Virus genome (UHGV): UHGV-0036156
Origin: a virus
Length of the DNA stretch: 33,121 nucleotides
Reading direction: 5' to 3' (one strand)
Shown one piece after another: positions 10,247 to 33,121 of this stretch. Under the pieces are notes generated by a model that saw only the letters and a program-made list of their open reading frames with translations, made no database searches and had not been told where the DNA came from. Position numbers and translations under genes: made by a program. Positions within the stretch are counted from its first letter, which is position 1. Each line of letters begins with the position of its first letter.

Positions 10247-10256
10247 TGGGGGCAAA

Positions 10257-10667: not shown

Positions 10668-10678
10668 GTAACAGCAAT

Positions 10679-10698: not shown

Positions 10699-10740
10699 TG
10701 TTAATTAATAATAACCCCGTCTACAAATTCCCCTGAGTTA

Positions 10741-10766: not shown

Positions 10767-10769
10767 TTC

Positions 10770-11198: not shown

Positions 11199-11210
11199 AC
11201 AGGAGAGCGT

Positions 11211-11510
11211 GTGGATATTTATTCAGTGCTGACCTACTCGATAGGCAGTGGCAACACCATTGGTGGCATTTTGTGGTGGGCGGTGAGGCGTACATTTGCC
11301 AGTACGGAACGTGTGGAGCAAATCGAAAGCCGTTTAACCGCGCTTGAAACGAAGTGCGAAAACATGCCCAGTGCACAGGATTTACATGCTGTCCGGTTAC
11401 AAACCGCAGAAACCAATGGTGAAGTGAAAGCGATGAACCGGCACATACAGGTGCTGACCCATCAACTGGAGCTTTTGCTCGAAAAGGCGCTCGGAGAGAA
11501 CAACAAATGA
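11211..11510 (+). CDS. Releasin-like membrane-tethered protein (Mu gp25 position)
   Basis: 99 aa with an N-terminal hydrophobic segment (IYSVLTYSIGSGNTIGGILWWAV) and a coiled-coil-like remainder; directly follows the gp22-like gene. GTG start. Confidence 0.6.
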   Translation: MDIYSVLTYSIGSGNTIGGILWWAVRRTFASTERVEQIESRLTALETKCENMPSAQDLHAVRLQTAETNGEVKAMNRHIQVLTHQLELLLEKALGENNK

Positions 11511-12384: not shown

Positions 12385-12397
12385 AGGAGAAAATGTA

Positions 12398-12592
12398 ATG
12401 GCTGTTGAAACCAAAGAAAAAACGTCTGCGGAAATTGCCCTGAAACTCAAACCCATCGTCGAAGCGGCGCTGGCTGAGGAGGGCAATATTCATATCGTCA
12501 CAAAAGCCGAATCACTGTATCTGTTAATGCAGATTGTGGTTGGCCCGCGTATCGCGGGCCAGATCATCAGAGAGTCACAAATTAATCAGTAA
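12398..12592 (+). CDS. Small protein, function unknown, in an inserted segment between terminase genes
   Basis: AAGGAG 8 nt upstream of ATG at 12398 (ORF track frame 12326..12592); 64 aa. Confidence 0.5.
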   Translation: MAVETKEKTSAEIALKLKPIVEAALAEEGNIHIVTKAESLYLLMQIVVGPRIAGQIIRESQINQ

Positions 12593-12767
12593 TCATTGCC
12601 TCCAGCAACTGATAAATATGTTTTAACAACTCCCGTTCTGACTTCACATTTTGATCAGAACCGGCAAGACACGCTGGCTGTTTATTCGTATTCATGCCAG
12701 CGATAACAAAGTCACTTGCTATTTTTGCAATCTCAATTTTTTGGTCAATGGTCAGCTTTTCTTTCAT
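12582..12767 (-). CDS. Counter-oriented small protein (61 aa), function unknown
   Basis: Minus-strand ORF with AAGAGG 5 nt upstream of its ATG and a TATAAA -10-like element about 30 nt further upstream; local AT-rich composition. Confidence 0.5.
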   Translation of the reverse strand: MKEKLTIDQKIEIAKIASDFVIAGMNTNKQPACLAGSDQNVKSERELLKHIYQLLEAMITD

Positions 12768-12821
12768 AGCAACCTCTTTTTACTGATTAAAGCCTGAAAA
12801 TTTATACCGGATTTTTCACCT

Positions 12822-14477: not shown

Positions 14478-16015
14478 TGGGCCGTATTCTGGATATTTCC
14501 GGGCAGCCGTTTGATTTTGACGATGAAATGCAGACCCGCAGCGATGAGCTGGCAATGGTCATGAAGCGCACACAGGAGCATCCCTCCAGTGGCGTGACGC
14601 CGAACCGGGCCGCGCAGATGCTGCGTGATGCCGAACGCGGTGATCTGACAGCACAGGCTGACCTGGCCTTTGATATGGAAGAAAAGGACACCCACCTTTT
14701 TTCCGAACTGAGCAAACGCCGCCTTGCCATTCAGGCGCTGGAATGGCGCATCGCTCCGGCACGTGATGCCAGTGCACAGGAGAAAAAAGACGCCGACATG
14801 CTGAATGAATATCTGCATGATGCGGCGTGGTTTGAAGATGCCCTGTTTGATGCCGGTGATGCCATTCTCAAGGGTTATTCCATGCAGGAGATTGAATGGG
14901 GGTGGCTTGGGAAAATGCGCGTGCCGGTGGCGCTGCATCATCGCGATCCGGCGCTGTTCTGCGCGAACCCCGACAATCTGAACGAATTACGTCTGCGTGA
15001 TACGTCTTATCACGGGCTGGAGCTGCAACCGTTCGGCTGGTTTATGCATCGGGCCAAATCCCGCACCGGGTACGTTGGTACCAATGGCCTTGTGCGCACG
15101 CTTATCTGGCCTTTTATTTTTAAAAACTATTCCGTGCGTGATTTTGCGGAGTTCCTGGAAATTTACGGACTCCCTATGCGCGTCGGTAAATATCCGACCG
15201 GCTCCACGAACCGCGAGAAAGCCACGCTGATGCAGGCCGTGATGGATATCGGGCGACGTGCCGGTGGCATTATTCCGATGGGGATGACGCTGGATTTTCA
15301 GAGCGCCGCAGATGGTCAGTCAGACCCCTTTATGGCGATGATTGGCTGGGCAGAAAAAGCGATTTCAAAAGCCATTCTGGGCGGCACCCTGACCACAGAG
15401 GCCGGAGATAAAGGTGCGCGGTCGCTGGGTGAAGTGCATGACGAGGTTCGCCGGGAAATCCGTAACGCGGATGTGGGCCAGCTTGCCCGCAGTATTAACC
15501 GTGACTTGATCTATCCCCTGCTGGCACTGAACAGTAACAGCACCATTGATATTAACCGCCTGCCGGGCATTGTATTTGATACCAGTGAAGCGGGTGATAT
15601 TACGGCACTGTCTGACGCCATTCCGAAACTGGCGGCAGGAATGCGTATTCCGGTCTCCTGGATACAGGAAAAACTTCATATTCCACAGCCGGTCGGTGAT
15701 GAAGCCGTGTTTACTGTACAACCGGTTGTCCCGGATAACGGTTCGCAGAAAGAGGCCGCATTATCCGCTGATGATATCCCGCAGAAGGATGATATCGACC
15801 GGATGGGCGTTTCACCGGAAGACTGGCAGCGTTCGGTTGATCCCCTGCTGAAACCCGTCATTCTTTCTGTGCTGAAAGATGGCCCGGAAGCCGCCATGAA
15901 CAAAGCCGCTTCATTATATCCGCAGATGGATGATGCAGAACTTATCGACATGCTGACCCGTGCCATTTTTGTTGCCGATATATGGGGGCGTCTGGATGCC
16001 GCAGCAGACCATTGA
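14477..16015 (+). CDS. Portal protein (Mu H/gp29-like)
   Basis: 512 aa, between terminase and the head-morphogenesis gene; start overlaps the terminase stop. Confidence 0.9.
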   Translation: MGRILDISGQPFDFDDEMQTRSDELAMVMKRTQEHPSSGVTPNRAAQMLRDAERGDLTAQADLAFDMEEKDTHLFSELSKRRLAIQALEWRIAPARDASAQEKKDADMLNEYLHDAAWFEDALFDAGDAILKGYSMQEIEWGWLGKMRVPVALHHRDPALFCANPDNLNELRLRDTSYHGLELQPFGWFMHRAKSRTGYVGTNGLVRTLIWPFIFKNYSVRDFAEFLEIYGLPMRVGKYPTGSTNREKATLMQAVMDIGRRAGGIIPMGMTLDFQSAADGQSDPFMAMIGWAEKAISKAILGGTLTTEAGDKGARSLGEVHDEVRREIRNADVGQLARSINRDLIYPLLALNSNSTIDINRLPGIVFDTSEAGDITALSDAIPKLAAGMRIPVSWIQEKLHIPQPVGDEAVFTVQPVVPDNGSQKEAALSADDIPQKDDIDRMGVSPEDWQRSVDPLLKPVILSVLKDGPEAAMNKAASLYPQMDDAELIDMLTRAIFVADIWGRLDAAADH

Positions 16016-17315
16016 TCTGGCGTATGCCGCACGCCTCCCGCCAAAGGAGGCTGTCGCGTATTTCCGCGCCAAAGGCTACAACATCACCTGGAACTGGTAC
16101 GAACAACTGGCAGACGCGCACGCCCGTGCCTTTACCGTTGCCAAAGCTGCCCGGATGGATGTCCTGACCACAATCCGTGAGGAAGTGGAGCGGGCTGTCA
16201 GTGAGGGTATCACCCGTGAGGAATTTACCCGCACACTGGCTCCCCGGTTGCAAAAGCTCGGATGGTGGGGAAAACAAATCATCGTGGATGCAGAGGGAAA
16301 CGCGAAGGAAATCGAACTGGGCAGTCCGCGTCGTCTGGCAACCATTTATAACGTCAATACCCGTACAGCGTACGGGGCGGGACGTTATGCACAGATGATG
16401 AATACCGCAGACCTGTATCCGTACTGGCAGTATGTCGCCGTTATGGACAGCAGAACGCGCCCGGAACATGCCCGGCTGCATAATATGATTTTCCGGTATG
16501 ACGATATTTTCTGGCAGACACATTACCCGCCCAATGGCTGGAGCTGTCGCTGCCGCGTTCGTGCGATATCTGCGGCCCGAATGAAAGAACTGGGATTACA
16601 GGTCAGCTATGGTGCTTCATTCATGGATACCCGCGAAGTGGAGGCCGGCACGGATGAAAGCACAGGAGAGATTTTCCGCACATCGTCAACCACGTTTGAC
16701 AACGGTCGGGTAAAAATGACGCCGGACGTTGGCTGGTCATATAACCCTGGTTCGGCGGCATTCGGTACTGATCAGGCGCTGATTCGAAAACTGGTGGAAG
16801 TTCGTGACGCGCAGCTGCGTGAGCAGGTTGTACAGACGCTGAATAACAGCCGGGAGCGCCAGCTTGCTTTTTCCCTGTGGCTTAATCGTCTGGCGAAATC
16901 ACGTCACGCCGGGCGTGAGATCCGGGCACTGGGTTTTATGACGGAATCGGTAGCTGAAGCCGTACATCAGCGCACCGGGAATATGCCAGCCCGTTTACTG
17001 GTGATGAATGGAGAAAGTCTGGCTACCGCTGCTGATGCTGCCCTGAAAGCAGAGGATTTACAGCGTCTGCCGTCTCTGATGGCAGAACCACAGGCGGTAT
17101 TGTGGGACAGAAAAAATCACCAGCTGCTGTACGTTGTGGCAACCCGTGACGGCACGGCCCAAATTGTGGTCAGAACATCACAGACAGTCGGCAGGCAGAA
17201 TGACCGGGCTGATGTGCTGGTCAGTATCAGCCGCGTATCTGCACAGTCGCTTGAAGCCGCGATTGCTGACGGGATGATTGACGTACTGGAAGGGCATGTG
17301 GAGGTGAATAAGTGA
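15960..17315 (+). CDS. Head morphogenesis protein (Mu F/gp30-like)
   Basis: 451-aa ORF; the likely start is the ATG at 15996 after a GGGGG stretch. Confidence 0.85.
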   Translation: MPFLLPIYGGVWMPQQTIDLAYAARLPPKEAVAYFRAKGYNITWNWYEQLADAHARAFTVAKAARMDVLTTIREEVERAVSEGITREEFTRTLAPRLQKLGWWGKQIIVDAEGNAKEIELGSPRRLATIYNVNTRTAYGAGRYAQMMNTADLYPYWQYVAVMDSRTRPEHARLHNMIFRYDDIFWQTHYPPNGWSCRCRVRAISAARMKELGLQVSYGASFMDTREVEAGTDESTGEIFRTSSTTFDNGRVKMTPDVGWSYNPGSAAFGTDQALIRKLVEVRDAQLREQVVQTLNNSRERQLAFSLWLNRLAKSRHAGREIRALGFMTESVAEAVHQRTGNMPARLLVMNGESLATAADAALKAEDLQRLPSLMAEPQAVLWDRKNHQLLYVVATRDGTAQIVVRTSQTVGRQNDRADVLVSISRVSAQSLEAAIADGMIDVLEGHVEVNK

Positions 17316-17782
17316 GTCTTGATATGAACGTTGCCGTGGATGTGCGACGTATCCGGCTTGCTCTTGATGATCTGGCAACGGTAACGCATGACGGATATGT
17401 GCCACGTGTGATGGCTGCGGCATTGCTGTCGTCTTCTGAACAGGCTTTTGAACGGCAGGCAGACCCGGACACGGGCCAGAGCTGGGAGTCATGGAGTGAC
17501 CCGTGGCTGGCATGGCGTCAGGAGCATGGTTTTGTTCCGGGTAGCATTCTTACCCTGCATGGCGATCTGGCCCGCAGCATCACTTCCGCTTACGGCCCGG
17601 ATTATGCCCTGATTGGCTCACCAAAAGTTTACGCTGCTATTCATCAGTGGGGCGGTAAGCCTGATATGCCCCCCGGTCCGGCAGGTGTTCCTGCACGTCC
17701 TTATATGGGGCTGGATAAGAGCGGTGAGCAGGAAATTTATGATGCCATCAGAAAACGCGTAAGCGCCGCTCTGACGCAGTAA
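17312..17782 (+). CDS. Virion morphogenesis protein (Mu G/gp31-like)
   Basis: 156 aa, overlaps the F stop; last gene before the central intergenic region. Confidence 0.75.
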   Translation: MSLDMNVAVDVRRIRLALDDLATVTHDGYVPRVMAAALLSSSEQAFERQADPDTGQSWESWSDPWLAWRQEHGFVPGSILTLHGDLARSITSAYGPDYALIGSPKVYAAIHQWGGKPDMPPGPAGVPARPYMGLDKSGEQEIYDAIRKRVSAALTQ

Positions 17783-17968
17783 CCAGATACAGAGATAAAA
17801 TCACGCGATAAAGAATTTTTGAAGGTTCTGTGGCGTTTTTGAAGGGGTTTTGAAGGGGGTAGCGTCATGCATTTCCCTTCCCCTTTATCTTTCTCCTGCA
17901 GAATTACTAAAACTGGATAACCCCGCCTTTTCTCCCGTTCCCCGCACACTGGCTACTCACAAATCACG
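17783..17968. promoter_or_regulatory. Central intergenic region: candidate late promoter and candidate strong gyrase site equivalent
   Basis: 186-bp non-coding gap between G-like and I-like genes, about 17.7 kb from the left end. Three direct copies of TTTTGAAGG (17816-17825, 17836-17845, 17848-17856); ATAACCCCG at 17917-17925. Confidence 0.4.
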
Positions 17969-19069
17969 ATGAGCAGGCCGGACATGAAAAAACACGCGAT
18001 TGGTATTGCTGCGCTGGGTGCGCTGTCCATTGACGATGACGGCTGGTGCCAGCTATTGCCTGCCGGTTATTTCAGTGCCCGTGACGGTCGCCCGTTTGAT
18101 GTAACAACCGGTCAGGGCTGGTTCATCGACGGAGAAATTGCCGGACGCCTGATTGAAGGTATCCGCGCACTTAACCAGGACGTGCTGATTGATTACGAGC
18201 ATAACCAGCTGCGTAAGGACAAAGGATTACCCCCGGAACAACTGGTCGCGGCTGGCTGGTTTAACGCCGATGAAATGCAGTGGCGTGAAGGTGAAGGGTT
18301 ATTTATCCACCCACGCTGGACAGCGGCAGCCCAGCAGCGCATCGATGACGGTGAATTTGGTTATCTCTCTGCGGTTTTTCCGTATGACACCGCCACTGGT
18401 GCGGTACTGCAAATCCGCCTTGCTGCGCTGACCAATGATCCCGGTGCCACCGGCATGAAAAAGCTGACCGCACTGGCGGCAGGCCTTCCCGACATCCTTC
18501 AACAGGAGAACAAACCCATGAATGAAACGCTGCGCAAGCTGCTTGCGCGTCTTGGGGTAACTGTCCCCGAAAATGCAGACATCACTGATGAACAGGCCAG
18601 CGCGGCCCTGAGTGCGCTTGATGCACTCGAAACAGATGCCGGAAAAGTGGCGTCGTTATCCGCCGAACTGGAAAAGGCACAGAAAGCCGCCGTTGACCTG
18701 ACGAAATACGTCCCGGTGGAAAGCTACAACGCCGTGCTTGATGAACTGGCTCAGGCCACCGCGCAAAGTGCCACCGCCAGCCTGAGCGCCGTTCTGGACA
18801 AGGCGGAACAGGAAGGCCGCATTTTCAAAAGCGAACGTGCCTATCTGGAACAGCTTGGCGGTCAGATTGGCGTGGCGGCACTGTCGGCACAGCTTGAGAA
18901 AAAACAGCCCATCGCTGCGTTATCTGCCATGCAGACCACAACGGTACAAAACCCGTCGCAGGAAAAACCGGCGGTGGCGGTGCTGTCTGCTGATGAAAAA
19001 GCAGCAGTGAAGGCGCTCGGCATTACTGAGGCTGAGTATCTGAAAATGAAACAGGAACAAGAAAAATGA
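17969..19069 (+). CDS. Head protease/scaffold protein (Mu I/gp32-like)
   Basis: 366 aa; N-terminal protease-like region and a C-terminal Ala/Glu/Lys-rich coiled-coil scaffold-like region. The ATG at 17984 may be the true start. Confidence 0.85.
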   Translation: MSRPDMKKHAIGIAALGALSIDDDGWCQLLPAGYFSARDGRPFDVTTGQGWFIDGEIAGRLIEGIRALNQDVLIDYEHNQLRKDKGLPPEQLVAAGWFNADEMQWREGEGLFIHPRWTAAAQQRIDDGEFGYLSAVFPYDTATGAVLQIRLAALTNDPGATGMKKLTALAAGLPDILQQENKPMNETLRKLLARLGVTVPENADITDEQASAALSALDALETDAGKVASLSAELEKAQKAAVDLTKYVPVESYNAVLDELAQATAQSATASLSAVLDKAEQEGRIFKSERAYLEQLGGQIGVAALSAQLEKKQPIAALSAMQTTTVQNPSQEKPAVAVLSADEKAAVKALGITEAEYLKMKQEQEK

Positions 19070-19983
19070 TTGTCACCCCGGCATCCATTAAAGCTCTGAT
19101 GACCTCCTGGCGTAAGGATTTTCAGGGCGGTCTTGAAGACGCCCCGTCGCAGTACAGCAAAATTGCAATGGTGGTGAACTCCTCCACCCGCAGCAATACC
19201 TATGGCTGGCTGGGTAAATTCCCGACCCTGAAAGAATGGGTGGGTAAGCGAACCATTCAGCAAATGGAAGCGCATGGCTACTCCATCGCTAATAAAACGT
19301 TTGAAGGCACCGTGGGTATTTCCCGTGATGACTTCGAGGATGACAATCTGGGTATTTATGCGCCGATTTTTCAGGAGATGGGCCGTTCTGCGGCAGTTCA
19401 GCCGGATGAGCTGATTTTTAAACTTCTGAAAGATGGCTTTACCCAGCCCTGCTATGACGGTCAGAACTTCTTCGACAAGGAGCATCCGGTATATCCGAAT
19501 GTGGACGGCACGGGCAGCGCGGTTAATACCTCCAACATCGTTGAGCAGGACAGCTTCAGCGGTCTGCCATTCTATCTGCTGGACTGCTCCCGCGCAGTCA
19601 AACCGCTGATTTTCCAGGAGCGCCGCAAACCGGAACTGGTCGCACGTACCCGTATCGATGACGACCACGTTTTTATGGATAACGAGTTCCTGTTTGGTGC
19701 CAGCGCCCGCCGTGCTGCCGGTTACGGCTTCTGGCAGATGGCTGTCGCGGTAAAAGGCGATCTGACGCTGGATAACCTCTGGAAGGGCTGGCAACTGATG
19801 CGTTCTTTTGAAGGTGATGGCGGTAAGAAGCTGGGCCTGAAGCCGACGCATATCGTTGTACCGGTCGGACTGGAAAAATCCGCAGAGCAACTGCTTAACC
19901 GTGAGCTGTTCGCGGATGGCAATACCACCGTCTCTAACGAGATGAAGGGTAAGCTGCAACTGGTTGTTGCTGACTACCTGTAA
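19066..19983 (+). CDS. Major capsid protein (Mu T/gp34-like)
   Basis: 305 aa, follows the protease/scaffold gene and is followed by a strong hairpin. Confidence 0.9.
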   Translation: MIVTPASIKALMTSWRKDFQGGLEDAPSQYSKIAMVVNSSTRSNTYGWLGKFPTLKEWVGKRTIQQMEAHGYSIANKTFEGTVGISRDDFEDDNLGIYAPIFQEMGRSAAVQPDELIFKLLKDGFTQPCYDGQNFFDKEHPVYPNVDGTGSAVNTSNIVEQDSFSGLPFYLLDCSRAVKPLIFQERRKPELVARTRIDDDHVFMDNEFLFGASARRAAGYGFWQMAVAVKGDLTLDNLWKGWQLMRSFEGDGGKKLGLKPTHIVVPVGLEKSAEQLLNRELFADGNTTVSNEMKGKLQLVVADYL

Positions 19984-19991
19984 CCGTCGTT

Positions 19992-20015
19992 AAAAGGCGG
20001 TTCAGGCCGCCTTTT
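19992..20015 (+). terminator. Stem-loop/terminator after the major capsid gene
   Basis: AAAAGGCGG-TTCAGG-CCGCCTTTT, a 9-bp perfect stem with an A-tract/T-tract, 9 nt after the capsid stop. Confidence 0.6.
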
Positions 20016-20049
20016 AACCTGATTTAAAGGAAAAGGAGGAGCATGTGTT

Positions 20050-20460
20050 ATGTCAGGCACTTCGCTTAATTCACAACGGCTGGACACTTCTCGCATCACT
20101 TGCACGGCGATTATTAAATGTCTTCGCCCGGTCTACCGCCGCGCCGGTATCGCCTTTACGCGTGGCGAAAACACAGTGGAAGTCACCGAAGAACAACTGG
20201 CGATCATCCGTGCCGACAGCGTGTTGTCTGTTGTATCGACAACGGCAGCAGAAACGCTCGCTGAGGCTGGGGGGCTGGACGTTCTGGGTGTGGGCGATCT
20301 GAACGCCCGTATCCGTGCGACCGTTGCCGGTCTGGATCAGGCAAACCCGGAACACTTTACCGCAGGGGGGGAACCCAAAGTGAAAGCGGTCAGTGCGGTG
20401 CTGGGGGAAAACGTCACTGCGGCACAAATCAAAGCAGCACTGGCTGAGGCGCAAGCATGA
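20050..20460 (+). CDS. Head-associated protein (Mu gp35 position)
   Basis: 136 aa; AAGGAGGAG upstream of the ATG. Confidence 0.65.
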   Translation: MSGTSLNSQRLDTSRITCTAIIKCLRPVYRRAGIAFTRGENTVEVTEEQLAIIRADSVLSVVSTTAAETLAEAGGLDVLGVGDLNARIRATVAGLDQANPEHFTAGGEPKVKAVSAVLGENVTAAQIKAALAEAQA

Positions 20461-20879
20461 GCTATGCCTCTCTTGACGACATGGTAAAGCGTTACCAGCG
20501 CAGCAATCTGGACAAACTGACCGCTGATAAATCGGACAACTTTGAACCAGATGATGCACTGATTACGCAGGCGTTACAGGATGCCAGCGCGCTTATCGAC
20601 GGTTATATCAGTCCCCGTTACCAGCTGCCATTGTCAGTGGTTCCTGTAACGCTGGTTCGTGTTTGTTGCGATATTGCTTTTTATTACCTGTGTGATGAAC
20701 AGGCAACAGAGCAATGCACACAACGTTACAAAGACGCCATCAGGTGGCTGGGGGTGGTTCTCGACGGAAAATTACCGCTTGGCGCAGATGTGCATGGTGT
20801 TGAACCGGTCAGCGAAAATCTGGTTGAGGTGCAGTCTGACGCAGCCATTTTCTCCCGCAACCAGAAGGGGTTTATCTGA
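20457..20879 (+). CDS. Head-tail joining protein (Mu gp36 position)
   Basis: 140 aa, overlapping stop/start with neighbours. Confidence 0.65.
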   Translation: MSYASLDDMVKRYQRSNLDKLTADKSDNFEPDDALITQALQDASALIDGYISPRYQLPLSVVPVTLVRVCCDIAFYYLCDEQATEQCTQRYKDAIRWLGVVLDGKLPLGADVHGVEPVSENLVEVQSDAAIFSRNQKGFI

Positions 20880-21427
20880 TGATTGCCACCACAGAAGCTG
20901 CTTTGCTCGATGCTGTTCGTGGGTTGTTCGGACGGACGCTGCGGGATGTAAAAACGCATCCCGGCACCTGGTCTGATGCCGCAATTAAAAAAATCCTGAT
21001 TGCGCCGCCGTCTGTTTATCTGGCGTGGCTGGGCTGCGGTGAAGGCCGCACCCGCCGTGAAGTGGAAAGCCGCTGGGTGTTTTACGTGGTGGCAAAAATG
21101 CTGAACGGTCGGGAAACCGACCGTCCGGGGATTTACCAGATTGTTGAGCGCCTGATTGCCGGAATGAACGGACATACATTTGGCCCCACAACCGGCCTGC
21201 GTCTGACCAGCGTCCGCAACCTGTATACCGATGCCCAGAGTAATTCAGGAGTCGCATTGTACGGTATCTATTTCAGTGGCATCACGCCGTTACCGTCCGG
21301 TGTGGATATGGACTCGCTGGATGATTACGAGCGCCACTGGCAGACCTGGAAATTCCCGGACGAACCCCCGGAATTTGCCGCACATATCAATGTGAATCAG
21401 GAAAAGGATCATGATGCTGAAAATTAA
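20879..21427 (+). CDS. Tail completion/neck protein (Mu gp37/K position)
   Basis: 182 aa, synteny. Confidence 0.65.
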   Translation: MIATTEAALLDAVRGLFGRTLRDVKTHPGTWSDAAIKKILIAPPSVYLAWLGCGEGRTRREVESRWVFYVVAKMLNGRETDRPGIYQIVERLIAGMNGHTFGPTTGLRLTSVRNLYTDAQSNSGVALYGIYFSGITPLPSGVDMDSLDDYERHWQTWKFPDEPPEFAAHINVNQEKDHDAEN

Positions 21428-21617
21428 ACCCGCAGCGGGAAAAGCCATCCGTGACCCGCTCACGATGAAATTACTGGCTCCGGAGGGAGAAGAAAAGCCC
21501 CGTAACAGTTTCTGGATACGTCGCCTTGCAGCCGGTGATGTGGTTGAAGTCGGGAGCACCGAAAACACGGCGGATGATACCGACGCTGCGCCGAAAAAAC
21601 GGAGTAAATCGAAATGA
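21411..21617 (+). CDS. Small structural-module protein (Mu gp38 position)
   Basis: 68-aa ORF bridging to the sheath gene. Confidence 0.5.
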
Positions 21618-23101
21618 GCGATATTTCATTTAACGCGATCCCGTCAGATGTTCGCGTTCCCCTGACGTATATCGAATTTGATAACAGTAATGCCGTCAGC
21701 GGAACACCGGCACCCCGTCAGCGCGTGCTGATGTTCGGGCAAAGCGGAAGTAAAGCCAGTGCGGCACCAAACGTGCCTGTCCGTATCCGTTCCGGCTCAC
21801 AGGCCAGTGCGGCGTTTGGTCAGGGTTCCATGCTGGCACTGATGGCAGATGCATTCCTGAACGCTAACCGCGTGGCGGAGCTGTGGTGTATCCCGCAGGG
21901 GAACGGCACCGGTAATGCTGCTGTCGGTGAAATCTCACTGTCAGGAACGGCAGGCGAAAACGGCTCGCTTGTGACTTACATTGCCGGTCAGCGACTAGCG
22001 GTATCTGTCGCAGCAGGTGCAACGGGAGCGGCGCTGGCTGACCTGCTGGTTGCCCGAATCAAAGGCCAGCCTGATTTACCGGTGACGGCAGAAGTTCGCG
22101 CAGACAGCGGGGATGATGACACTCATGCAGATGTGGTTCTGAGTGCAAAATTTACGGGTGCATTATCTGCCGTGGACGTGCGCTGGAACTATTACGCGGG
22201 TGAAACCACCCCTTACGGGATTATCACGGCATTCAAAGCCGCCTCCGGGAAAAACAGCAACCCGGATATCAGCGCAAGTATCGCGGGAATGGGCGATCTG
22301 CAATACAAATATATTGTGATGCCCTATACCGATGAACCGAACCTGAATCTGTTACGCACTGAATTGCAGGAACGCTGGGGACCGGTCAATCAGGCTGATG
22401 GCTTTGCCGTGACAGTGCTGTCCGGCACGTATGGGGATATTTCCACGTTTGGTGTCAGCCGTAATGACCATCTGATTTCCTGTATGGGGATTGCCGGTGC
22501 ACCGGAACCGTCATATCTGTACGCCGCCACCCTGTGTGCCGTTGCCAGCCAGGCGCTTTCCATCGACCCGGCGCGTCCACTCCAGACGCTGACGTTGCCC
22601 GGAAGAATGCCGCCTGCGGTGGGGGATCGTTTCACCTGGTCAGAACGTAATGCGCTGCTGTTTGACGGCATCTCCACGTTTAACGTGAATGATGGTGGTG
22701 AAATGCAGATTGAACGCATGATCACGATGTACCGCACAAACAAGTACGGTGACAGCGATCCGTCTTATCTGAACGTGAATACCATCGCCACGCTGAGTTA
22801 TCTGCGTTATTCGCTGCGAACCCGCATCACGCAGAAATTCCCGAACTACAAGCTGGCAAGTGATGGCACCCGCTTTGCCACCGGTCAGGCCGTGGTGACG
22901 CCATCCGTGATCAAAACGGAGTTGCTGGCACTGTTTGAAGAATGGGAAAACGCCGGACTGGTCGAGGATTTCGACACGTTCAAAGAGGAGCTGTATGTGG
23001 CACGTAACAAGGATGATAAAGACCGTCTTGATGTGCTGTGCGGCCCGAATCTGATCAACCAGTTCCGCATTTTTGCGGCGCAAATTCAGTTCATTCTGTA
23101 A
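21614..23101 (+). CDS. Contractile tail sheath protein (Mu L-like)
   Basis: 495 aa, immediately upstream of the tube gene. Confidence 0.9.
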
Positions 23102-23110
23102 GGAGTATTT

Positions 23111-23467
23111 ATGGCTGGAAATCAGCGTCAGGGGGTGGCATTCATCCGTGTCAATGGCATGGAGCTTGAATCAATGGAAGGTGCTTCCTTCACACCCTCC
23201 GGCATCACCCGTGAAGAAGTGACCGGCTCGCGGGTTTATGGCTGGAAAGGTAAACCACGTGCAGCAAAAGTGGAATGCAAAATTCCGGGGGGCGGTCCCA
23301 TCGGGCTGGATGAAATTATCGACTGGGAAAACATCACCGTCGAATTCCAGGCTGATACCGGCGAAACCTGGATGCTGGCGAATGCCTGGCAGGCGGATGA
23401 ACCGAAAAACGACGGCGGCGAAATTTCGCTGGTACTGATGGCAAAACAAAGCAAACGCATTGCATAA
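23111..23467 (+). CDS. Tail tube protein (Mu M-like)
   Basis: 118 aa, follows the sheath gene. Confidence 0.85.
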   Translation: MAGNQRQGVAFIRVNGMELESMEGASFTPSGITREEVTGSRVYGWKGKPRAAKVECKIPGGGPIGLDEIIDWENITVEFQADTGETWMLANAWQADEPKNDGGEISLVLMAKQSKRIA

Positions 23468-23476
23468 GGGGAAACA

Positions 23477-23911
23477 ATGGACGAAATGAATTTAAGTCCT
23501 GAAGCACAGGAACTGCGTGACAGCATTGTGGCTGAGCTTCAGTCCGGTGGTCTGAAACTGAAAGACGGCCTGCCGTTCGGCACTGGTGACGAGACTGAAA
23601 TGCAGTATGACGTGACACTGCGTGAACTGACCGCAGGCGATCTGATTGATGCCCAGGCGGCTGCTGAAAAGCTGGTAATGAGCAAGGAAGGCCCGGTGCT
23701 GGTCAGTTCCCCGTCCCGGATGGGACTGGAAATGCTGCGCCGACAGATTGCCAGCGTGGGTTGCATCAAAGGCCCGTTATCGCTGGCGCTGATGCGCAAG
23801 CTGTCTGTTGATGACTTCCAGCGTCTGTCGCTGGCTACAGAGATGCACGACATGGCTGTGGCGGCATCGCTGACGCAAGAACGGGGGCGAGTGGCTGCGG
23901 TGCCGGAATGA
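23477..23911 (+). CDS. Tail assembly chaperone-like protein (Mu gp41 position)
   Basis: 144-aa acidic protein between tube and tape measure. Confidence 0.6.
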   Translation: MDEMNLSPEAQELRDSIVAELQSGGLKLKDGLPFGTGDETEMQYDVTLRELTAGDLIDAQAAAEKLVMSKEGPVLVSSPSRMGLEMLRRQIASVGCIKGPLSLALMRKLSVDDFQRLSLATEMHDMAVAASLTQERGRVAAVPE

Positions 23912-24055
23912 TATTGAGAAAGCGGCGACAGCGATTGGCGTTATTCTGAAAAGTGGCCCGGAATGGGCCTTGTCTCTCCCGCTGTCCCGCTTTTTCCGGC
24001 ACTGCCAGCAGGCTAAAACCCTCTCTCAATATCACCGTTAAATCAGGAAATCTCT

Positions 24056-26167
24056 ATGACCGGGAAACGCTTAAAAGCGTCAGTCATTATTGACCTTAAT
24101 GGCAATCTTTCCCGGCGTTCCCGCCAGTATTCGAACCAGATAAACGCCCTGTCCCGTAGTGGGCAAAGTTCCCTGCGTGCCCTGCGTATGGAAGTGGTGC
24201 GCGTGTCTGGTGCCATCGACAGAATGGGTTCTCTCTCAACCCGTACATTCCGAATGCTGTCAGCCGGGGCGCTGGGTGTTGCCGGGGTGGGTTACACCGC
24301 CAATAAACTGTTTATCAGCGCAGCAGCTCAACGTGAACAGCAGATTATCGCCATGAACTCGCTGTATCACGGCGATAAGGCCAGAGCACAGGCAATGATG
24401 GCCTGGGCGAAGCAGAACGCGAAGGACACCACGTGGGGGCTGAGTGGTGTTCTTGATGAGATCCGTTCGTCGAAAGGCTTCGGCATGACGGATGAACAGA
24501 CGAAACAGTTCATCACCATGTTGCAGGATCAGGGGGCCATGCACGGCTGGGATTTACCCACTGCACAGGGTGCCTCACTGCAACTGAAACAGATGTTTGC
24601 CCGCCAGCAAATCACAGCGGCGGATGCCAACCTGCTGACCGGTTACGGTATCAACGTTTATCAGGCGCTGGCGGATGCAACGGGAACGGACGTTAAAAAA
24701 ATCCGTGATCTGGGGACAAAGGGCAAGCTGGGCATGAAATCCATTCTGACGGTATTCAGAACGCTGTCAGAACAGTCAAAAGGTGCACAGGCCAGTGCGA
24801 TGAACTCCTGGGACGGGATGTTCGCCCAGATGGAAGCCAACCTGCTTGAATTTCGCATAAAGGTGGCAAACAGCGGCCCTTTTGAAGAAATCAAGAATGA
24901 GATGCGCCGGGTGCTTAACTGGCACGATGCGGCGGATAAATCCGGGGAGCTTGATAAACGGGCTGATGAAATTGGTCAGAAATTCCTGACCACATTCAGA
25001 ACCCTGAAATCTGCGGCACAGGAGTTATGGCGCTGGCTGAAACCGGGTAAAGATGCGCTGGCATGGGTTGACCAGAATATTGTCAGCCTGAAAAAACTGG
25101 CTGCTGTACTGGTGTCTGTCTGGCTTGCCAATAAAGCACTGAGGGCGGGCTGGGCCGTGGCGAAGCCATCATGGCAGGTTGCCAGCTATCCGTTCAAAAC
25201 CGGGCGTCGAATGTGGCGCTGGATGCGAAAACGCAAACATGGACAGACAGGCATTCCGGCACCGGATGCGCTACCTGCTACAGAACTACTGCGGGAACTG
25301 ACAGTTCAGCGCGTTTTTGTGACTAACTGGCCCAACGGGTTCGGTGGATATGGCGGATTTTCCCGATACGGAGGTAAAACACCGGCAGCATTGCCCCGCC
25401 AGCCGTTATTGCTGTCCGGGCCACAACCGCTGGCACTTCCGGCCCCACGCACTGTTCCCGCATTACCAGCACCGAAACCACTGGCATTACCTGCACCATC
25501 CCCGGTACTGGCATTGCCATCTCCCGGTGCGCCGGGGGCCACACGGCGCACATCGTTACCTTTACCCGGCAAATCCGGTCTGTTGAGCAGGCTTGCAGGC
25601 AGTGCTGCCGGACAACTGGTTACGGGAACAATCGGAAAGCTGGCTGGTGCCGGTCGTACCGTTGGCGGGTTGTTTTCCGGTATCGGAAACAAACTTGCAG
25701 ACAGTGCCATTGGTCGGGTTGTGACAAAAGGGGCCGGGGCGCTGGGCTGGATGGGGAAAGGCGCGGGTCGTGCACTGTCACGTCTTGGCGGTCCGGTGAT
25801 GGGGGCACTCCAGCTTGCTCCCGTTCTGATGGATGAACAGGCATCAACTCATGAAAAAGCCGGAGCAATTGGCAGCACTGCCGGCGCCTGGCTCGGCGGT
25901 GCCGTTGGCAGCCTTGCCGGACCGCTGGGCACGGTTGCCGGTGCCACGCTGGGCAGTGTCGCCGGGGAATATCTGGGTGGTTTTGTGACTGACCTGTATC
26001 AGAAATGGACGGCCCCGGAAAGGGAACCGCAGGAGCAAAAAGTGAATGCGGAAGCATCGCTGCGCGTCGAGCTTGGCGAAGGATTACGTCTGACCAGTTC
26101 CCGCGTCACCGAGGATGGTATGGGGCTGAATATTTACGCGGGCGATAACTACATTACAGGCTGGTAA
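24056..26167 (+). CDS. Tail tape measure protein
   Basis: 703 aa with a Pro/Ala-rich repeat tract (LALPAP...) and a Gly-rich C-terminal region; located between chaperone and baseplate genes. Confidence 0.9.
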
Positions 26168-26171
26168 AACC

Positions 26172-27659
26172 ATGTTTGAAGATGCTTTAAATGCCGTTAA
26201 TTCTGTCCGGGATAAAATCGGCGGTGGTAAGAAAACAACCGGCAAAGGCACGTTCCGTAACGTGCCGTTTCTCGTCATTGAGGAGCAAAAACAGGCTGGC
26301 GGACGTCGTCTGGTTAAACGCGAGTACCCGTTACGTGATACCGGCGGTGTCAATGACCTGGGGAAAAAACTTCGCTCCCGCACATTCAGCATCTGCATTC
26401 TGAACAGCAACGCAGAGACTGCCAGAGATGAAGCGGGTGCGTTGATGGATGCTCTTGATGCACCGGGCAGCGGCGAACTGGTGCATCCAGAGTTCGGCAC
26501 TGTGGACGTCATGGTGGATTCATGGGAATGCCGTACTAAAGCGGATGAACTGAATTATTACGCGTTCACCGTTACCGTTTATCCGTCGTTGCAGGATACA
26601 GCCCCGGACGCAGAAACAGACACCAGTACAGCCGTATCTGCGCAGGCCGTTGCTGTAACCGGTTCGCTGGGGGATACGTTGTCCTCTGTCTGGCAGACCG
26701 TAAAAGATGGCACAGCGGCGGCAACAGCCGTAATGGATGCCGTCACCGGTGTCATCGATGATATCTGTGATGCGGTGGATAATCTGGGGATCACCCAGAC
26801 TGTCAGCGGCCTGATGGGGTCACTTTCTGCAATGAAAGGTTCTGTGACCGGCCTGATAAATAAACCAGCCATGCTGACATCTTCACTGATGGGGGCGTTA
26901 TCCGGCGTTTCATCGTTATGCGATACCCGAACAGCATTTTCCACCTGGAACCGTCTGGCGCAGCGGTTCGAAAGCCGACATGCCTCCACCACTGACAGAC
27001 AAGGTGCCATTACCACTTCATACAGCAGCCCGGTTGCAGAAAAAAATATTGCCACACTGAACTACGTCATGCTGGCAGCAGCACAGACATACCGGGCGGA
27101 GGCAGCAAGCCAGGCACTGACTGCGGCACTGGATTCCAGCCGTCAGATGGATAATGCCGCCCGTGCACCGGCGCTGGATGTATCAGTCACAACAACCGGC
27201 ATCGCCAGTGGTGCCAGCAGCACATCGTCCACGGTCACACAAAGCCAGTTGCAGTTAACCGGGATAACCCCGGACGGCGGCTTTTCACCAGTATCCTTTT
27301 CAGACAGTAGCACAGCCACGCCCCCGGTATTTGAAAGCGTGTCCGATATCGAAAAAACAGCCGCCATGCTGGGGGCTGCACTGGATACCGTCATTCTGAC
27401 GGCATCTGAGCAGGGCTTTTCGACAGACAGCGTTCAGCTTACGCAACTGCGTCTGCTGGTTGTTGCCGACCTGGAAAAACGCGGGCTGCAACTGGCGGGC
27501 AGTGAAACGCACCGCCTGCCGGAGACGATGCCTGCAATGGTGGCCCTGTACCGTTACACAGGAAACAGCCGGAACTGGCAACGGCTGGCCCGCAGGAACG
27601 GTATCAGCAACCCGTTGTTTGTTCCCGGTGGTGTCAGTATTGAGGTGATTAATGAGTAA
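26172..27659 (+). CDS. DNA circularisation protein (Mu N/gp43-like)
   Basis: 495 aa, between tape measure and the baseplate hub as in Mu. Confidence 0.8.
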
Positions 27660-28791
27660 TACCGTCACGCTGCGAACGGATGGCAGGCTTTTTACCGGCT
27701 GGACGTCAGTCTCTGTCACCCGCTCGATTGAATCCGTAGCCGGATATTTTGAGCTGGGGGTGAACGTGCCATCGGGTACGGATTTATCCGGGCTGGCACC
27801 GGGGAAGGCGTTCACGCTCGAAATCGACGGGCAGATTGTCTGCACCGGTTATATCGATTCGCGGCGACGCCAGATGACCGCTGACAGCATGAAAATCACT
27901 ATCGCCGGACGTGACAAAACGGCTGACCTGATTGACTGTGCTGCCGTTTACAGTGGCGGACAGTGGAAAAACCGCACACTGGAGCAGATTGCGCGTGACC
28001 TGTGCGCTCCTTATGGCGTTACCGTTCGCTGGGAGCTTTCCGATAAGGAAAGTTCGGCAGCTTTTCCCGGCTTCACGCTGGACCATTCAGAAACCGTTTA
28101 TGAGGCGCTGGTGCGTGCCTCCCGCGCACGCGGTGTACTGATGACCAGCAATGCCGCAGGAGAGCTGGTATTCAGCCGGGCTGCCAGCACAGCAACTGAT
28201 GAGCTGGTTCTCGGAGAAAATCTGCTGACACTGGATTTTGAGGAAGACTTCCGCGACCGGTTCAGCGAATACACCGTCAAGGGGTATGCCCGCGCAAATG
28301 GTGCTGAGGGTGATGATATTGATGCGAAAAGTATCGTCTCCCGGAAAGGGACCGCCACTGACAGTGATGTGACCCGTTACAGACCGATGATCATCATTGC
28401 TGACAGCAAAATTACAGCGAAGGATGCACAGGCCCGCGCCCTGCGTGAGCAACGCCGCAGACTGGCAAAATCCATCACCTTTGAGGCTGAAATTGACGGA
28501 TGGACTCGCAAGGACGGGCAACTCTGGATGCCGAACCTGCTGGTCACTATTGATGCCTCGAAATATGCCATCAAAACCACGGAATTACTGGTCAGCAAAG
28601 TCACCCTGATACTGAATGACCAGGACGGGCTGAAAACCCGCGTCAGCCTTGCACCACGCGAAGGCTTTCTGGTGCCGGTTGAAAGCGACCGTAAAAACAG
28701 GAAAGGCGGCGACAGTAACGGCGGTATTGATGCGCTGGTTGAAGATTATTATCGCAGACACCCGGAGAAAACACCGCCGTGGAAAGAGTAA
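27652..28791 (+). CDS. Baseplate hub protein (Mu P/gp44-like)
   Basis: 379 aa, synteny. Confidence 0.85.
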
Positions 28792-29372
28792 ATGATTCCG
28801 CCCTGAACCGCCTGCTGACGCCGCTGATGCGTCGTGTACGCCTGATGCTTGCGCGCGCTGTTGTTAACGTGATTAACGACGGGCGAAAGGTTCAGAACCT
28901 GCAGGTCGGTCTGCTGGATGATGAGGAATCTGATGAAGTGGAGCGCCTGCAAAATTACGGACATTTCAGCGTTCCTCTGCCGGGCGCAGAGGCGCTGATT
29001 GCCTGTGTGGGCGCACAACGTGATCAGGGGATTGCTGTTGTGGTGGAAGACCGCCGCTACCGCCCGACAAATCTTGAACCGGGTGATGCAGGCATTTACC
29101 ACCATGAGGGGCATCGTATCAGGCTGACAAAGGACGGACGCTGCATCATTACCTGTAAAACGGTTGAGGTTTACGCTGATGAAAGTATGACCGTTGACAC
29201 ACCCAGAACCACGTTTACCGGCGACGTTGAGATCCAGAAAGGTCTGGGCGTTAAAGGTAAAAGCCAGTTCGACAGCAATATTACTGCCCCGGATGCCATC
29301 ATCAATGGCAAATCGACGGATAAGCATATCCACCGTGGCGACAGCGGCGGAACCACGGGGCCAATGCAATGA
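28779..29372 (+). CDS. Baseplate spike/assembly protein V-like (Mu gp45)
   Basis: 197 aa, synteny. Confidence 0.8.
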   Translation: MERVNDSALNRLLTPLMRRVRLMLARAVVNVINDGRKVQNLQVGLLDDEESDEVERLQNYGHFSVPLPGAEALIACVGAQRDQGIAVVVEDRRYRPTNLEPGDAGIYHHEGHRIRLTKDGRCIITCKTVEVYADESMTVDTPRTTFTGDVEIQKGLGVKGKSQFDSNITAPDAIINGKSTDKHIHRGDSGGTTGPMQ

Positions 29373-29806
29373 CCGATTTAGCCATTATCTGGACGAACGG
29401 GCGCGGCGATATTGCACAGGATGGCATTGATATGCTGACCGACGACAGCCTGACAACCGATGTGACAATCTCCCTGTTTACCGACCGGCGCGCGCTGGAT
29501 TCTGACACGCTGCCGGATGGTTCAGATGATCGCCGTGGATGGTGGGGTGACAGTTACCGCGACCGCCCCATCGGTTCGCGGTTGTGGCTGTTATCACGTG
29601 AAAAAGCCACGCCGGATACGCTGGAACGCGCCAGAGGGTATGCCGAAGAGGCGCTGGAATGGCTGAAAACAGCGGGCCGGGTAAGTGCGATTAACGTCAG
29701 AGCGGAACAGTTACATCAGGGCTGGTTATACCTCTACATTGCACTGACATTACCGGATGGTTCCGTTATTCCTTATGAGTTTAAAGCAGCATTTAACGGG
29801 GTTTAA
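29369..29806 (+). CDS. Baseplate wedge protein, W-like (Mu gp46)
   Basis: 145 aa, synteny. Confidence 0.75.
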   Translation: MTDLAIIWTNGRGDIAQDGIDMLTDDSLTTDVTISLFTDRRALDSDTLPDGSDDRRGWWGDSYRDRPIGSRLWLLSREKATPDTLERARGYAEEALEWLKTAGRVSAINVRAEQLHQGWLYLYIALTLPDGSVIPYEFKAAFNGV

Positions 29807-30889
29807 ATGGCTTATTCACCACCGACATTATCATCGCTGATTGCCCGTACAGAACAAAATATTGAACAGCGCCTGCCGGGTAGCTGGCCTCAGGCCCGTG
29901 AAAAAACGCTGAGTGCCATTGCTTATGCTCAGGCGGGCCTTGCTGCCGGTTGTCACGAGCATATTTCATGGGTTGGACGGCAGATTATCCCGTCGACAGC
30001 AGATGAAGATGAGTTGCTGGAGCACTGCCGGTTCTGGGGCGTGCGCCGCAAACAGGCGACAGCAGCCAGCGGCCCGCTGACTGTCACCACATCGGCAGCG
30101 ACCACCATTCCTGCCGGTACACGCTGGCAGCGTGCTGATGGTGTGGTTTACAGCCTGGCTGATGCCATTGTGATTGACCGTGCAGGAACGACGGAAATTA
30201 CCGTTACCGCACTGGCTGCCGGTGAAGCAGGAAATACCGGTGAGAATACCCTTTTAACGTTGATCACCCCGGTTGCCTGTGTTGTTTCCGATGCCATCAC
30301 TGTAAAAGGGTTTTCCGGTGGGGCTGATATTGAGAGTGCAGCGGAGCTGCTGTCACGGCTGGAATATCGTGTCCAGTATCCTCCGTTCGGCGGTAATCAG
30401 TTTGATTATGTTCGCTGGGCGCGTGAAGTCAGCGGCGTTACCCGTGCCTGGTGTTTTCCGACATGGAAAGGCGGTGGCACAGTCGGGGTGACGTTTGTTA
30501 TGGATAACCGGAGCAATATTTTTCCACAACCGGCAGACGTGGAACGCGTGGCGGATTATATCGCCGGTCATACTGACCCGATCACTGGTCTGATTGTCGG
30601 ACAGCCTGACGGTGTAAATGTCACGGTATTTGCGCCAAAGGCAAAGCCGGTAAATCCACGGATTTATATATCACCGAAGACAGCCGAACTGAAACAGGCT
30701 ATTACCAACGCCATTAATACCATGTTTTTTAATGAGGTGACGCCGGGCGGCGCACTTGCCCCCTCCCGTATTATCCGTGCGGTGGCAGGTGTTACCGGTC
30801 TGGATGATTTTGAAGTGCGTTTCCCGACAGAGATCCAGCGTTCGGAGAATACGGAACTGTTAACACCGGGGACAATTGAATGGCTGTAA
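29807..30889 (+). CDS. Baseplate J-like protein (Mu gp47)
   Basis: 360 aa, synteny. Confidence 0.85.
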   Translation: MAYSPPTLSSLIARTEQNIEQRLPGSWPQAREKTLSAIAYAQAGLAAGCHEHISWVGRQIIPSTADEDELLEHCRFWGVRRKQATAASGPLTVTTSAATTIPAGTRWQRADGVVYSLADAIVIDRAGTTEITVTALAAGEAGNTGENTLLTLITPVACVVSDAITVKGFSGGADIESAAELLSRLEYRVQYPPFGGNQFDYVRWAREVSGVTRAWCFPTWKGGGTVGVTFVMDNRSNIFPQPADVERVADYIAGHTDPITGLIVGQPDGVNVTVFAPKAKPVNPRIYISPKTAELKQAITNAINTMFFNEVTPGGALAPSRIIRAVAGVTGLDDFEVRFPTEIQRSENTELLTPGTIEWL

Positions 30890-31422
30890 CACCCTGGCAG
30901 ACGGCCTTTCTGCAATTACTGCCGTCAGGGCTTGCCTGGAATAAAAGCCCCGACAGCAAATTATCTGCGCTGGCGCAGGCCATCAGCGACGTGATTGCCA
31001 CTGCGGCGGATGATGCGCGGCAAATGCTGCGGGAGCGTTTCCCTTCCACATCCCGCTGGTATCTGGGTGAGTGGGAATCATTTCTGGGGTTGCCGGACTG
31101 TACCAGCGAAAACGGCACCCTGTCAGAACGCCAGCGGGCTGCCGCAAATAAAATGCGTATGACCGGCAATCTGAGTAGGCGCTTTTATGAATGGCTGGCT
31201 GCGCAGTACGGTTTTACCGTCAGGCTGACGGATTCCACAGAAGGCCAGTGGGTTACGCAGGTCAATATTTACGGTATTAAAAATTATCGCAACGCAACGG
31301 TGCTGGATAATGTTCTGACGCCGTTACGTGTTTATGAATCGGGTGCGCTGGAATGTTTACTGGAGAAATATAAACCCGCGCATCAGATTTATAAATTTGT
31401 TTACCATGACGGAGATAACTAA
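30880..31422 (+). CDS. Baseplate/tail-fibre attachment protein (Mu gp48)
   Basis: 180 aa, immediately upstream of the tail-fibre gene. Confidence 0.75.
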   Translation: MAVTPWQTAFLQLLPSGLAWNKSPDSKLSALAQAISDVIATAADDARQMLRERFPSTSRWYLGEWESFLGLPDCTSENGTLSERQRAAANKMRMTGNLSRRFYEWLAAQYGFTVRLTDSTEGQWVTQVNIYGIKNYRNATVLDNVLTPLRVYESGALECLLEKYKPAHQIYKFVYHDGDN

Positions 31423-32948
31423 TGTTTTATATTGATAACGACAGCGGCGTAACCGTCATGCCGCCCGTATCCGCCCAGCGTAGTGCTATCGTTCGCTGGT
31501 TTTCAGAAGGTGACGGGAATAATGTTATCACATGGCCCGGCATGGACTGGTTTAATATTGTGCAGGCGGAGTTATTAAACACGCTGGAAGAAGCCGGTAT
31601 TCAACCGGATAAAACAAAATTAAACCAGCTTGCACTGTCCATTAAAGCCATTATGAGCAATAACGCGCTGCTGATAAAAAATAACCTCAGCGAAATTAAA
31701 ACTGCCGGGGCATCAGCACAGCGTACAGCACGTGAAAATCTGGATATCTGGGATGCCAGCCTGAACAAAAAAGGACTCGTTCAGTTAACCAGTGCCACTG
31801 ACAGCCCCAGTGAAACGCTGGCAGCCACCGCAAAAGCGGTGAAAATTGCGATGGATAATGCCAATGCCCGTCTGGCAAAAGACCGGAACGGAGCAGATAT
31901 TCCCAATAAGCCGCTGTTTATCCAAAACGTCGGTTTACAGGAAACGGTAAACAAGGCTGGTAATGCCGTTCAAAAGACAGGCGATACCTTGTCAGGCGGA
32001 CTTACTTTTGAAAACGACTCAATCCTTGCCTGGATTCGGAATACTGACTGGGCAAAGATTGGATTTAAAAATGATGCCGACAGCGATACTGATTCATACA
32101 TGTGGTTTGAAACAGGCGACAACGGCAATGAATATTTCAAATGGAGAAGCCGCCAGAGCACCACAACAAAAGACCTGATGACTCTTAAATGGGATGCTTT
32201 GTCTGTCCTTGTTAAAGCCCTTTTCAGCAGTGAAGTAAAAATATCGACAGTCAATGCACTGAGGATATTTAATTCATCTTTTGGTGCCATTTTTCGCCGT
32301 TCTGAAGAATGCCTGCATATCATCCCTACACGAGAGAATGAGGGGGAAAATGGTGATATAGGGCCACTACGTCCCTTTACACTTAATCTCAGAACTGGCC
32401 GTATAACTATGGGGCATGGTCTGGATGTTACAGGAGATATAACAACTAACTCCTGGGTGTATGCAAACAGGTTTGCTATTAATAGTGGTTCAACCTCATG
32501 GATTGATATGCGAAACCAGAATGTCATTTTTGGTAGAAACGCAGTATCAACAAGTTCTGCGCAGGCTTTGTTAAGACAAGACCATGCAGAACGCAAATTT
32601 TTTGTCGGTGGACTTGGTAACTACCAGTTTGGTTTTTACATGATTAATAATTCAAGGACAGCCAATGGCACCGATGGTCAGGCGTACATGGATAATAACG
32701 GGAACTGGCTTTGCGGTGCGCAAGTTATTCCCGGCAACTATGGCAATTTTGACTCACGCTATGTGAGAGATGTCCGACTTGGCACACGTGTTGTTCAATT
32801 GATGGCGCGTGGTGGTCGTTATGAAAAAGCCGGACACGCAATTACCGGATTAAGAATCATTGGTGAAGTAGATGGCGATGATGAAGCCATCTTCAGACCA
32901 ATACAAAAATACATCAATGGCACATGGTATAACGTCGCACAGGTGTAA
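31422..32948 (+). CDS. Tail fibre protein (Mu S-like) with constant N-terminus and invertible C-terminal part
   Basis: 508 aa; a gix-like recombination site lies in-frame about 165 codons into the gene; the downstream part is AT-rich. Confidence 0.85.
   Translation: MFYIDNDSGVTVMPPVSAQRSAIVRWFSEGDGNNVITWPGMDWFNIVQAELLNTLEEAGIQPDKTKLNQLALSIKAIMSNNALLIKNNLSEIKTAGASAQRTARENLDIWDASLNKKGLVQLTSATDSPSETLAATAKAVKIAMDNANARLAKDRNGADIPNKPLFIQNVGLQETVNKAGNAVQKTGDTLSGGLTFENDSILAWIRNTDWAKIGFKNDADSDTDSYMWFETGDNGNEYFKWRSRQSTTTKDLMTLKWDALSVLVKALFSSEVKISTVNALRIFNSSFGAIFRRSEECLHIIPTRENEGENGDIGPLRPFTLNLRTGRITMGHGLDVTGDITTNSWVYANRFAINSGSTSWIDMRNQNVIFGRNAVSTSSAQALLRQDHAERKFFVGGLGNYQFGFYMINNSRTANGTDGQAYMDNNGNWLCGAQVIPGNYGNFDSRYVRDVRLGTRVVQLMARGGRYEKAGHAITGLRIIGEVDGDDEAIFRPIQKYINGTWYNVAQV
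31918..31943. other. gix/hix-type invertase recombination site (left boundary of an invertible tail-fibre segment)
   Basis: TTATCCAAAACG-TC-GGTTTACAGGAA, a 26-bp imperfect palindrome differing at one position from my recollection of the Mu gix sequence. Confidence 0.75.
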
Positions 32949-32951
32949 ATT

Positions 32952-33121
32952 ATGCAGCATTTAAAAAATATTAAGTCAGGAAATCCAAAAACAAAAGAGC
33001 AATATCAATTAACAAAGAATTTTGACGTAATCTGGTTGTGGTCTGAAGACGGAAAAAACTGGTATGAGGAAGTGAAAAACTTTCAGCCAGACACAATAAA
33101 GATTGTTTACGATGCAAATAA
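32952..33121 (+). CDS. Tail fibre assembly protein (Mu U-like), 5' part only; truncated by window end
   Basis: Begins [54 protein letters not shown], a typical tail-fibre-assembly N-terminus, 3 nt after the tail-fibre stop. Confidence 0.8.

Follow-up and report, generated by a model that had tools for sequence, protein, structure and literature searches.

A left gix site where the constant and variable parts of the tail-fibre gene meet in a Mu/D108-like prophage

The tail-fibre genes S and U

The sequence analysed here, referred to as the window, is the complete stretch of 33,121 nt available from virus genome UHGV-0036156. It ends in two plus-strand genes for a tail fibre and its assembly chaperone. 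The Mu-type tail-fibre gene S (31422-32948, 508 codons) codes for a protein which matches PDB entry 5YVQ ('Tail fiber protein S') with E = 1e-251 and which carries the Pfam assignments PF03406 and PF21446 (Phage_fiber_2, Gp34_trimer). S is composed of a constant N-terminal part (Sc, 31422-31929), placed outside the predicted invertible segment, and a variable C-terminal part (Sv, 31932-32948), which is fused to Sc in frame. Over residues 1-165, Sc shows 99.4% amino acid identity to Mu, D108 and other relatives. This conservation extends up to a 26 bp site, behind which Sv diverges, so that the site represents the constant/variable junction of S. In the Mu annotation, Sc is described with the phrase 'encodes amino terminal end of tail fiber protein (S') in G(-) phage'.

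Behind S begins U, the gene for the tail-fibre assembly chaperone (32952-33121), of which the window contains only the 5' part, 56 codons long. The encoded residues are 100% identical to U from D108, 91% to U from Mu, and 77% to U' from Mu. For two related prophages, L025 and L028, the value is 93%, and for a third, L016, it is 98%. A reading of this DNA from its sequence only had noticed a tail-fibre assembly gene that leaves the window downstream of the fibre, and this gene proves to be U. It had also proposed that the present orientation joins the constant N-terminus to this particular variable part, which agrees with the in-frame fusion of Sc and Sv.

The amino acid sequence of Sv is only 65.8% identical to that from Mu and 70.7% to that from D108. 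It is 85% identical to the cassette of L025/L028, 91% to those of PhiR68_1 and L002, and 98.5% to a silent cassette in L016. At the nucleotide level, the Sv'/U' cassette of P7 is 95.7% identical from 31961 up to the window end. Within Sv, the similarity to Mu and D108 ends at about 32222-32236 and returns at 32559 with only 73-86%. As the similarity to Mu and D108 is interrupted while that to P7 Sv' persists throughout, Sv is an internal mosaic, with a receptor-binding part closest overall to the P7 Sv'-type cassette. The window contains one cassette, consisting of Sv and the start of U, while relatives carry both cassettes, in opposite orientation. The arrangement in the window is G(+)-like, Sc being joined to the P7-Sv'-like variable part, which is followed by a D108-type U.

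Genome context of the window

The first 76 bases of the window correspond to the Escherichia coli gene yhjD. Of 5,426 complete genomes, 5,423 contain a match, which in many cases has 100% identity. After these 76-77 nt of yhjD, a Mu-type left end (TGTATTGATTCAC...) starts at position 78. From there on, the window has the Mu organization, with the A/B early genes and the late genes in Mu order up to S/U. It is colinear with Mu and D108, with 91-92% identity for the transposase region A/B (1516-4570) and about 94% for the late region (12823-32236). Even the offset of S is nearly that of Mu (31422 vs 31458). Because a Mu-type left end adjoins yhjD, the sequence identifies the window as a Mu/D108-like prophage integrated into yhjD or, alternatively, as packaged phage DNA which carries host sequence at one end. 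The window stops about 4 kb short of the prophage right end.

An identical sequence was not found in any of the collections searched, the best match over S-U being PhiR68_1 with 93%, and an exact-protein look-up of S gave no match. Known modules are combined in this phage into a new mosaic. Its repressor/ner region (400-1600) is unlike those of Mu and D108 and shows 95.4% identity to PhiR68_1 and about 99% to prophages of E. coli STEC388 and cS51a. However, the late regions of the latter two are of a different Mu-like type, devoid of gin and of the fibre found in the window, and we thus rejected these prophages as whole-genome relatives. The combination of a nearly identical repressor/ner region with different late regions points to an exchange of the immunity module between two Mu-like lineages. 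For several stretches, blastn gave no hit in either Mu or D108 (6434-7961, 8945-9532, 10665-11458, 12380-12823, 20460-20814), and around 9532-10665 the similarity to these phages is only 72-74%. The unmatched stretches belong to the semi-essential early region, the lysis region and the head-tail connector region, and look like replaced modules.

The recombination site

The 26 bp site TTATCCAAAACGTCGGTTTACAGGAA is found on the plus strand at 31918-31943. It is the single match in the window when both strands are searched and up to 7 mismatches are allowed. Its first base is the second base of codon 166 in the S ORF, and the in-frame translation across the site reads ...PLFIQNVGLQETVN... We parse it into two imperfectly symmetric half-sites of 12 bp each, separated by the core dinucleotide TC (31930-31931). 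The outer half-site TTATCCAAAACG lies on the Sc side and the inner half-site GGTTTACAGGAA on the side of the segment. This 12-2-12 parsing agrees with the layout of the native gix core, which is given as CTGT AAA CC GA GG TTT TGGA in PMC3985619. The dinucleotide corresponds to the position annotated as 'G-segment boundary' in Mu, and we infer it to be the point of strand exchange, at which the invertible segment actually begins on its left side.

Together with the adjacent ACGGTAAA, the site makes up a 34 bp inverted-repeat arm (31918-31951, plus strand), which is expected to be shared with a right arm beyond the window. When the two arms are aligned for Mu, D108 and L016, they agree from TTATC to the end of ACGGTAAA and diverge thereafter. 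The inverted repeats of SfMu have likewise been described as 34 bp long (PMC4406740).

In Mu, TTATCCAAAACCTCGGTTTACAGGAA occurs on opposite strands at the two annotated G-segment boundaries, and the site in the window is identical to both copies in 25 of 26 positions. All 26 positions agree with the repeat at the left segment boundary in D108, PhiR68_1, SfMu and a prophage of E. coli WS1933D. The exact 26-mer also occurs in eight IMG/VR contigs, all of which are 94-99% relatives, and a scan of species-representative genomes gave 0 matches. The sequence-only reading had thus been right to recognize a gix-like crossover site at this position, located in frame about 165 codons into the tail-fibre gene.

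The 26-mer overlaps coding sequence, and this is the sole point in favour of its being an ordinary part of the fibre gene which resembles a crossover site by chance and has no role in recombination. We consider this extremely improbable. No match with 3 or fewer mismatches was obtained in 100 dinucleotide-preserving shuffles, so that none is expected by chance, and a chance match leaves unexplained the identity to the annotated boundary repeat of D108 and the near-identity to that of Mu. In addition, rearrangement breakpoints in relatives fall exactly on the site, and similarity to unrelated phage backbones starts exactly at 31918 (see below). The shuffles, the Mu/D108 boundary identity and the breakpoints led us to reject a chance match. 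On the basis of sequence comparison, the 26-mer is gixL, the recombination site on the left side of a G segment of Mu/D108 type.

Partner site and invertase

A second site or an invertase gene elsewhere in the window was considered and rejected. The mismatch-tolerant search (up to 7 mismatches) revealed no second site in the window, and no Gin homologue was found there by tblastn, the best hit having E = 0.074 over 21 residues. The window ends 1,178 nt past the site, while the partner site of relatives starts 3,047-3,084 nt after the start of the left site.

We surveyed 15 loci which have a Mu-type Sc and which continue for 3.8 kb or more beyond the left site. In twelve of these 15 relatives, an inverted partner lies at a distance of about 3.05 kb; the spacing of 3,047-3,084 nt, start to start, was measured in seven of these. 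In all 12, the first base of gin is 80 nt away from where the partner site starts, and the gene product is 98-100% identical to Gin from Mu. The right site, on the gin side, is TTATCTAAAACCTCGGTTTACAGGAA or TTATCCAAAACCTCGGTTTGCAGGAA in the D108/SfMu lineage. With a metagenome contig, L008, which has its partner at the contig end, the partner is kept in 13 of 15 relatives. We expect, from this analysis of relatives, that a partner site and gin are also present in the window's own genome, beyond the window end.

The remaining two relatives, L025 and L028, have lost partner and gin by a common deletion. In these isolate genomes (7497-10173; the same as in L009/L010), S' is truncated and continues directly into com at a distance of 2,676 nt from the left site; the deletion takes the 5' part of S', the right site (gixR) and gin. 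Such gin-less, locked derivatives thus exist, and an intact switch should not be assumed from a left site alone. The genome studied here could be a relic of the same kind, with an intact left site, with gixR and gin deleted, and with a fixed fibre. The two isolates represent the same allele and share with the window both the left-site variant and the U-type orientation. However, the partner is kept in 13 of the 15 relatives with enough downstream sequence, and the cassette of the window is closer to those of the intact prophages L016 (98%) and L002 (91%) than to that of L025/L028 (85% for Sv, 93% for U). A deletion of this kind is a real but unlikely possibility for this genome, and we favour an intact switch.

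Orientation of the segment in relatives

The isolate-genome prophage L016 has the whole segment reversed from site to site when compared to L002, L024 and L004. The reversed region of 3,091 nt, counted from the first base of one site through the last base of the other, aligns as reverse complement to L002 and L024 (90%) and to L004. The 300-nt flanks are colinear with the relatives on both sides, and the alignment places the breakpoints exactly at the sites. In the silent position of L016, which adjoins gin, we find the cassette of the window, with amino acid identities of 98.5% for Sv and 98% for the U N-terminus. SfMu, which has a left site identical to that of the window, is flipped in the same way as L016, so that SfMu and D108 have opposite segment orientations.

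Variants of the half-sites show a consistent distribution. The outer-left variant, with G at position 12, was seen in 13 loci, the window among them, and always on the Sc side. The outer-right variant, with T at position 6, was seen in 9 loci and always on the gin side. The inner half-site variants GGTTTGCAGGAA and GGTTTACGAGAA are found on either side. This is the distribution predicted for a crossover at the central dinucleotide, as outer variants are fixed to their flank while inner variants occur on both sides.

At the left site of L008, Sc is joined to one cassette. At the end of this contig, the other cassette is joined to a left-type outer half-site followed by 24 nt of Sc, rather than to the gin flank. 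As the inner half-sites differ, the exactly shared sequence is too short for a jump of the assembler, and both junctions are thus likely to be real within one sample.

Several draft contigs end at or near the site (L018 after 3 nt, L027 after 10 nt, L029 directly at the site; also L037 and L019/L021), and many draft contigs of Mu-like prophages end at gix or within a few hundred bases after it. This fits assemblies that break off because both orientations are mixed or because the repeat is inverted, but proves nothing.

The sequence-only reading had predicted that the DNA downstream of the site is invertible. In relatives, this is borne out by the full reversal in L016, by the opposite arrangements of SfMu and D108, and by the partner site kept in 13 of 15 loci. 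We conclude from these comparisons that, in relatives, a segment which is bounded by this exact site variant evidently flips.

Proposed mechanism

The mechanism would be that of the Gin/gix/Fis host-range switch (PMC3575834, PMC4406740). The serine invertase Gin, encoded just past the segment, would bind the site and its inverted partner as dimers. The dimers at the two gix sites would then form a synapse with an enhancer that is located inside gin and bound by the host protein Fis. Gin would cut both sites at the central TC, rotate, and religate the ends, by which the segment of about 3 kb would be inverted. Sc would thus exchange its in-frame partner, Sv/U against S'v/U', and the swapped fibre would give rise to particles with a different host range. 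The host range of the phage in the window is probably switchable. Taken as a whole, the explanation that the site is the gixL of a Mu/D108-type G segment in a yhjD prophage, switched by Gin, with partner and gin located downstream, is in our view highly probable.

The variant at position 12

The single difference to the Mu site is a C→G exchange at position 12, directly beside the central TC; in the numbering of the gix core, the exchanged base has position 2. At the protein level, it leads to an exchange of Leu to Val in S. The variant also occurs in D108, SfMu, PhiR68_1 and many prophages, and it makes the two gix sites of an element non-identical. Among the left sites surveyed, it accounts for 13 of 27, the window included. 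In six cases, a U-type gene follows the expressed fibre (window, L002, L004, D108, L025, L028), and in three cases a U'-type gene (L016, SfMu, L008).

It might be argued that G at position 12 impairs the site to an extent that the segment is effectively frozen even in the presence of gin and gixR. The authors of the SfMu study suspected that the 1-bp change in the inverted repeat, beside the crossover, reduces or abolishes inversion; they had observed no difference in host range between induced and infection-grown lysates (PMC4406740), and the left site of SfMu is identical to that of the window. Work on engineered recombinases (PMC3985619) attributes to the Gin catalytic domain a specific recognition of core positions 3 and 2. 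However, phages and prophages with the G variant are found in both orientations, and in L008 both Sc junctions carry it within one metagenome. The exchange retains a G/C at this position and fits the AAASSWWSSTTT rule reported for an evolved Gin (PMC5175349). Moreover, a null allele of a conserved switch would hardly be expected to reach a frequency of nearly one half. The variant is common, and its occurrence with the segment in either orientation argues against an abolished inversion; a frozen segment is quite improbable.

A switch that operates, possibly at a lower rate, remains our preferred reading. One may speculate that the G variant is a natural rate-tuning allele which slows G inversion and thereby shifts the mix of G(+) and G(-) which lysogens release. 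This is a tentative and rather doubtful proposal. If true, site function and protein sequence would be coupled, since the same base is responsible for the exchange of Leu to Val.

A different variation is seen in L026 and L027 (7497-7522), where the core of the left site is TT instead of TC (TTATCCAAAACCTTGGTTTACAGGAA). These contigs end 10-120 nt later. A TT core opposite a TC partner is expected to block productive inversion.

Comparison with known systems

The G segment of Mu and D108 is a classic DNA-inversion switch, and the site as a feature is not new. Its sequence has already been deposited for D108, SfMu and PhiR68_1 and has been discussed in the SfMu paper. The value of the present analysis is mainly one of annotation, in that a Mu/D108-like prophage has been identified and the start of its variable fibre part has been marked. 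A modest addition comes from the survey, where a gix variant suspected of blocking inversion was found to be common (13/27) and to occur with both orientations.

In Mu (AF083977.1; boundaries at 31966 and 35025), the site is at the same place in S, has the same 12-2-12 structure with a TC core, and is preceded by the same Sc. Downstream of the site, the relatives of the window resemble Mu in their gene order U-U'-S'-gin. The differences are the one base at position 12 (C→G) and Sv, which is 65.8% identical to that of Mu. While the two sites of Mu are identical, left and right sites of the D108/SfMu lineage differ at positions 6 and 12.

A closely similar arrangement is found in D108 (GQ357916.1; left repeat_region 32003-32038, followed by S, U, U', S' and gin). 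Its left site of 26 bp is identical to that of the window, and the repeat is annotated as 'related to inverted repeat in Mu'. Sc (99.4%), the U N-terminus (100%), the gene order and the offsets agree as well. In contrast, Sv of the window is only 70.7% identical to that of D108, being a mosaic with a P7-Sv'-like C-terminal part, and the immunity and early regions differ. A direct report of G inversion in D108 was not found in the literature searched. Electron-microscopy studies are said to have detected a G loop in D108, which we have not used as evidence.

SfMu (KP010268.1; PMC4406740) shares its left site with the window and its right site with D108. The database record shows the opposite orientation, with a U'-type cassette expressed and a window-like Sv (85.7% nucleotide identity) in the silent position.

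The variable part itself connects the window to other inversion systems. Sv/U is 95.7% identical, at the nucleotide level, to Sv'/U' of P7, which belong to the C segment of P1/P7 that is inverted by Cin at cix sites. P1/P7 and other backbones differ from the window's system in the constant part of the fibre and in the invertase (Cin or another enzyme), and the cix core is TT. Among metagenome and viral contigs, a 35-mer of the window that was absent from the relatives compared up to then was found only in cassettes of about 87% identity on other backbones. These non-Mu loci (L099-L130; for example L100, 1918-4996, and L104, 1358-4640) carry a cassette about 87% identical to Sv/U of the window, which starts at the equivalent of 31918. 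Their cassettes are flanked by related sites with a different outer half (TTATCGAATACC), and their invertases belong to the Gin family, with 73-82% identity to Gin. For several of these loci, the similarity to Gin extends over no more than about 99 residues, and these may represent truncated invertase genes. Module exchange at such sites is a known feature of these fibre genes. As the similarity to other backbones starts exactly at 31918, the site of the window is also a module boundary for horizontal exchange.
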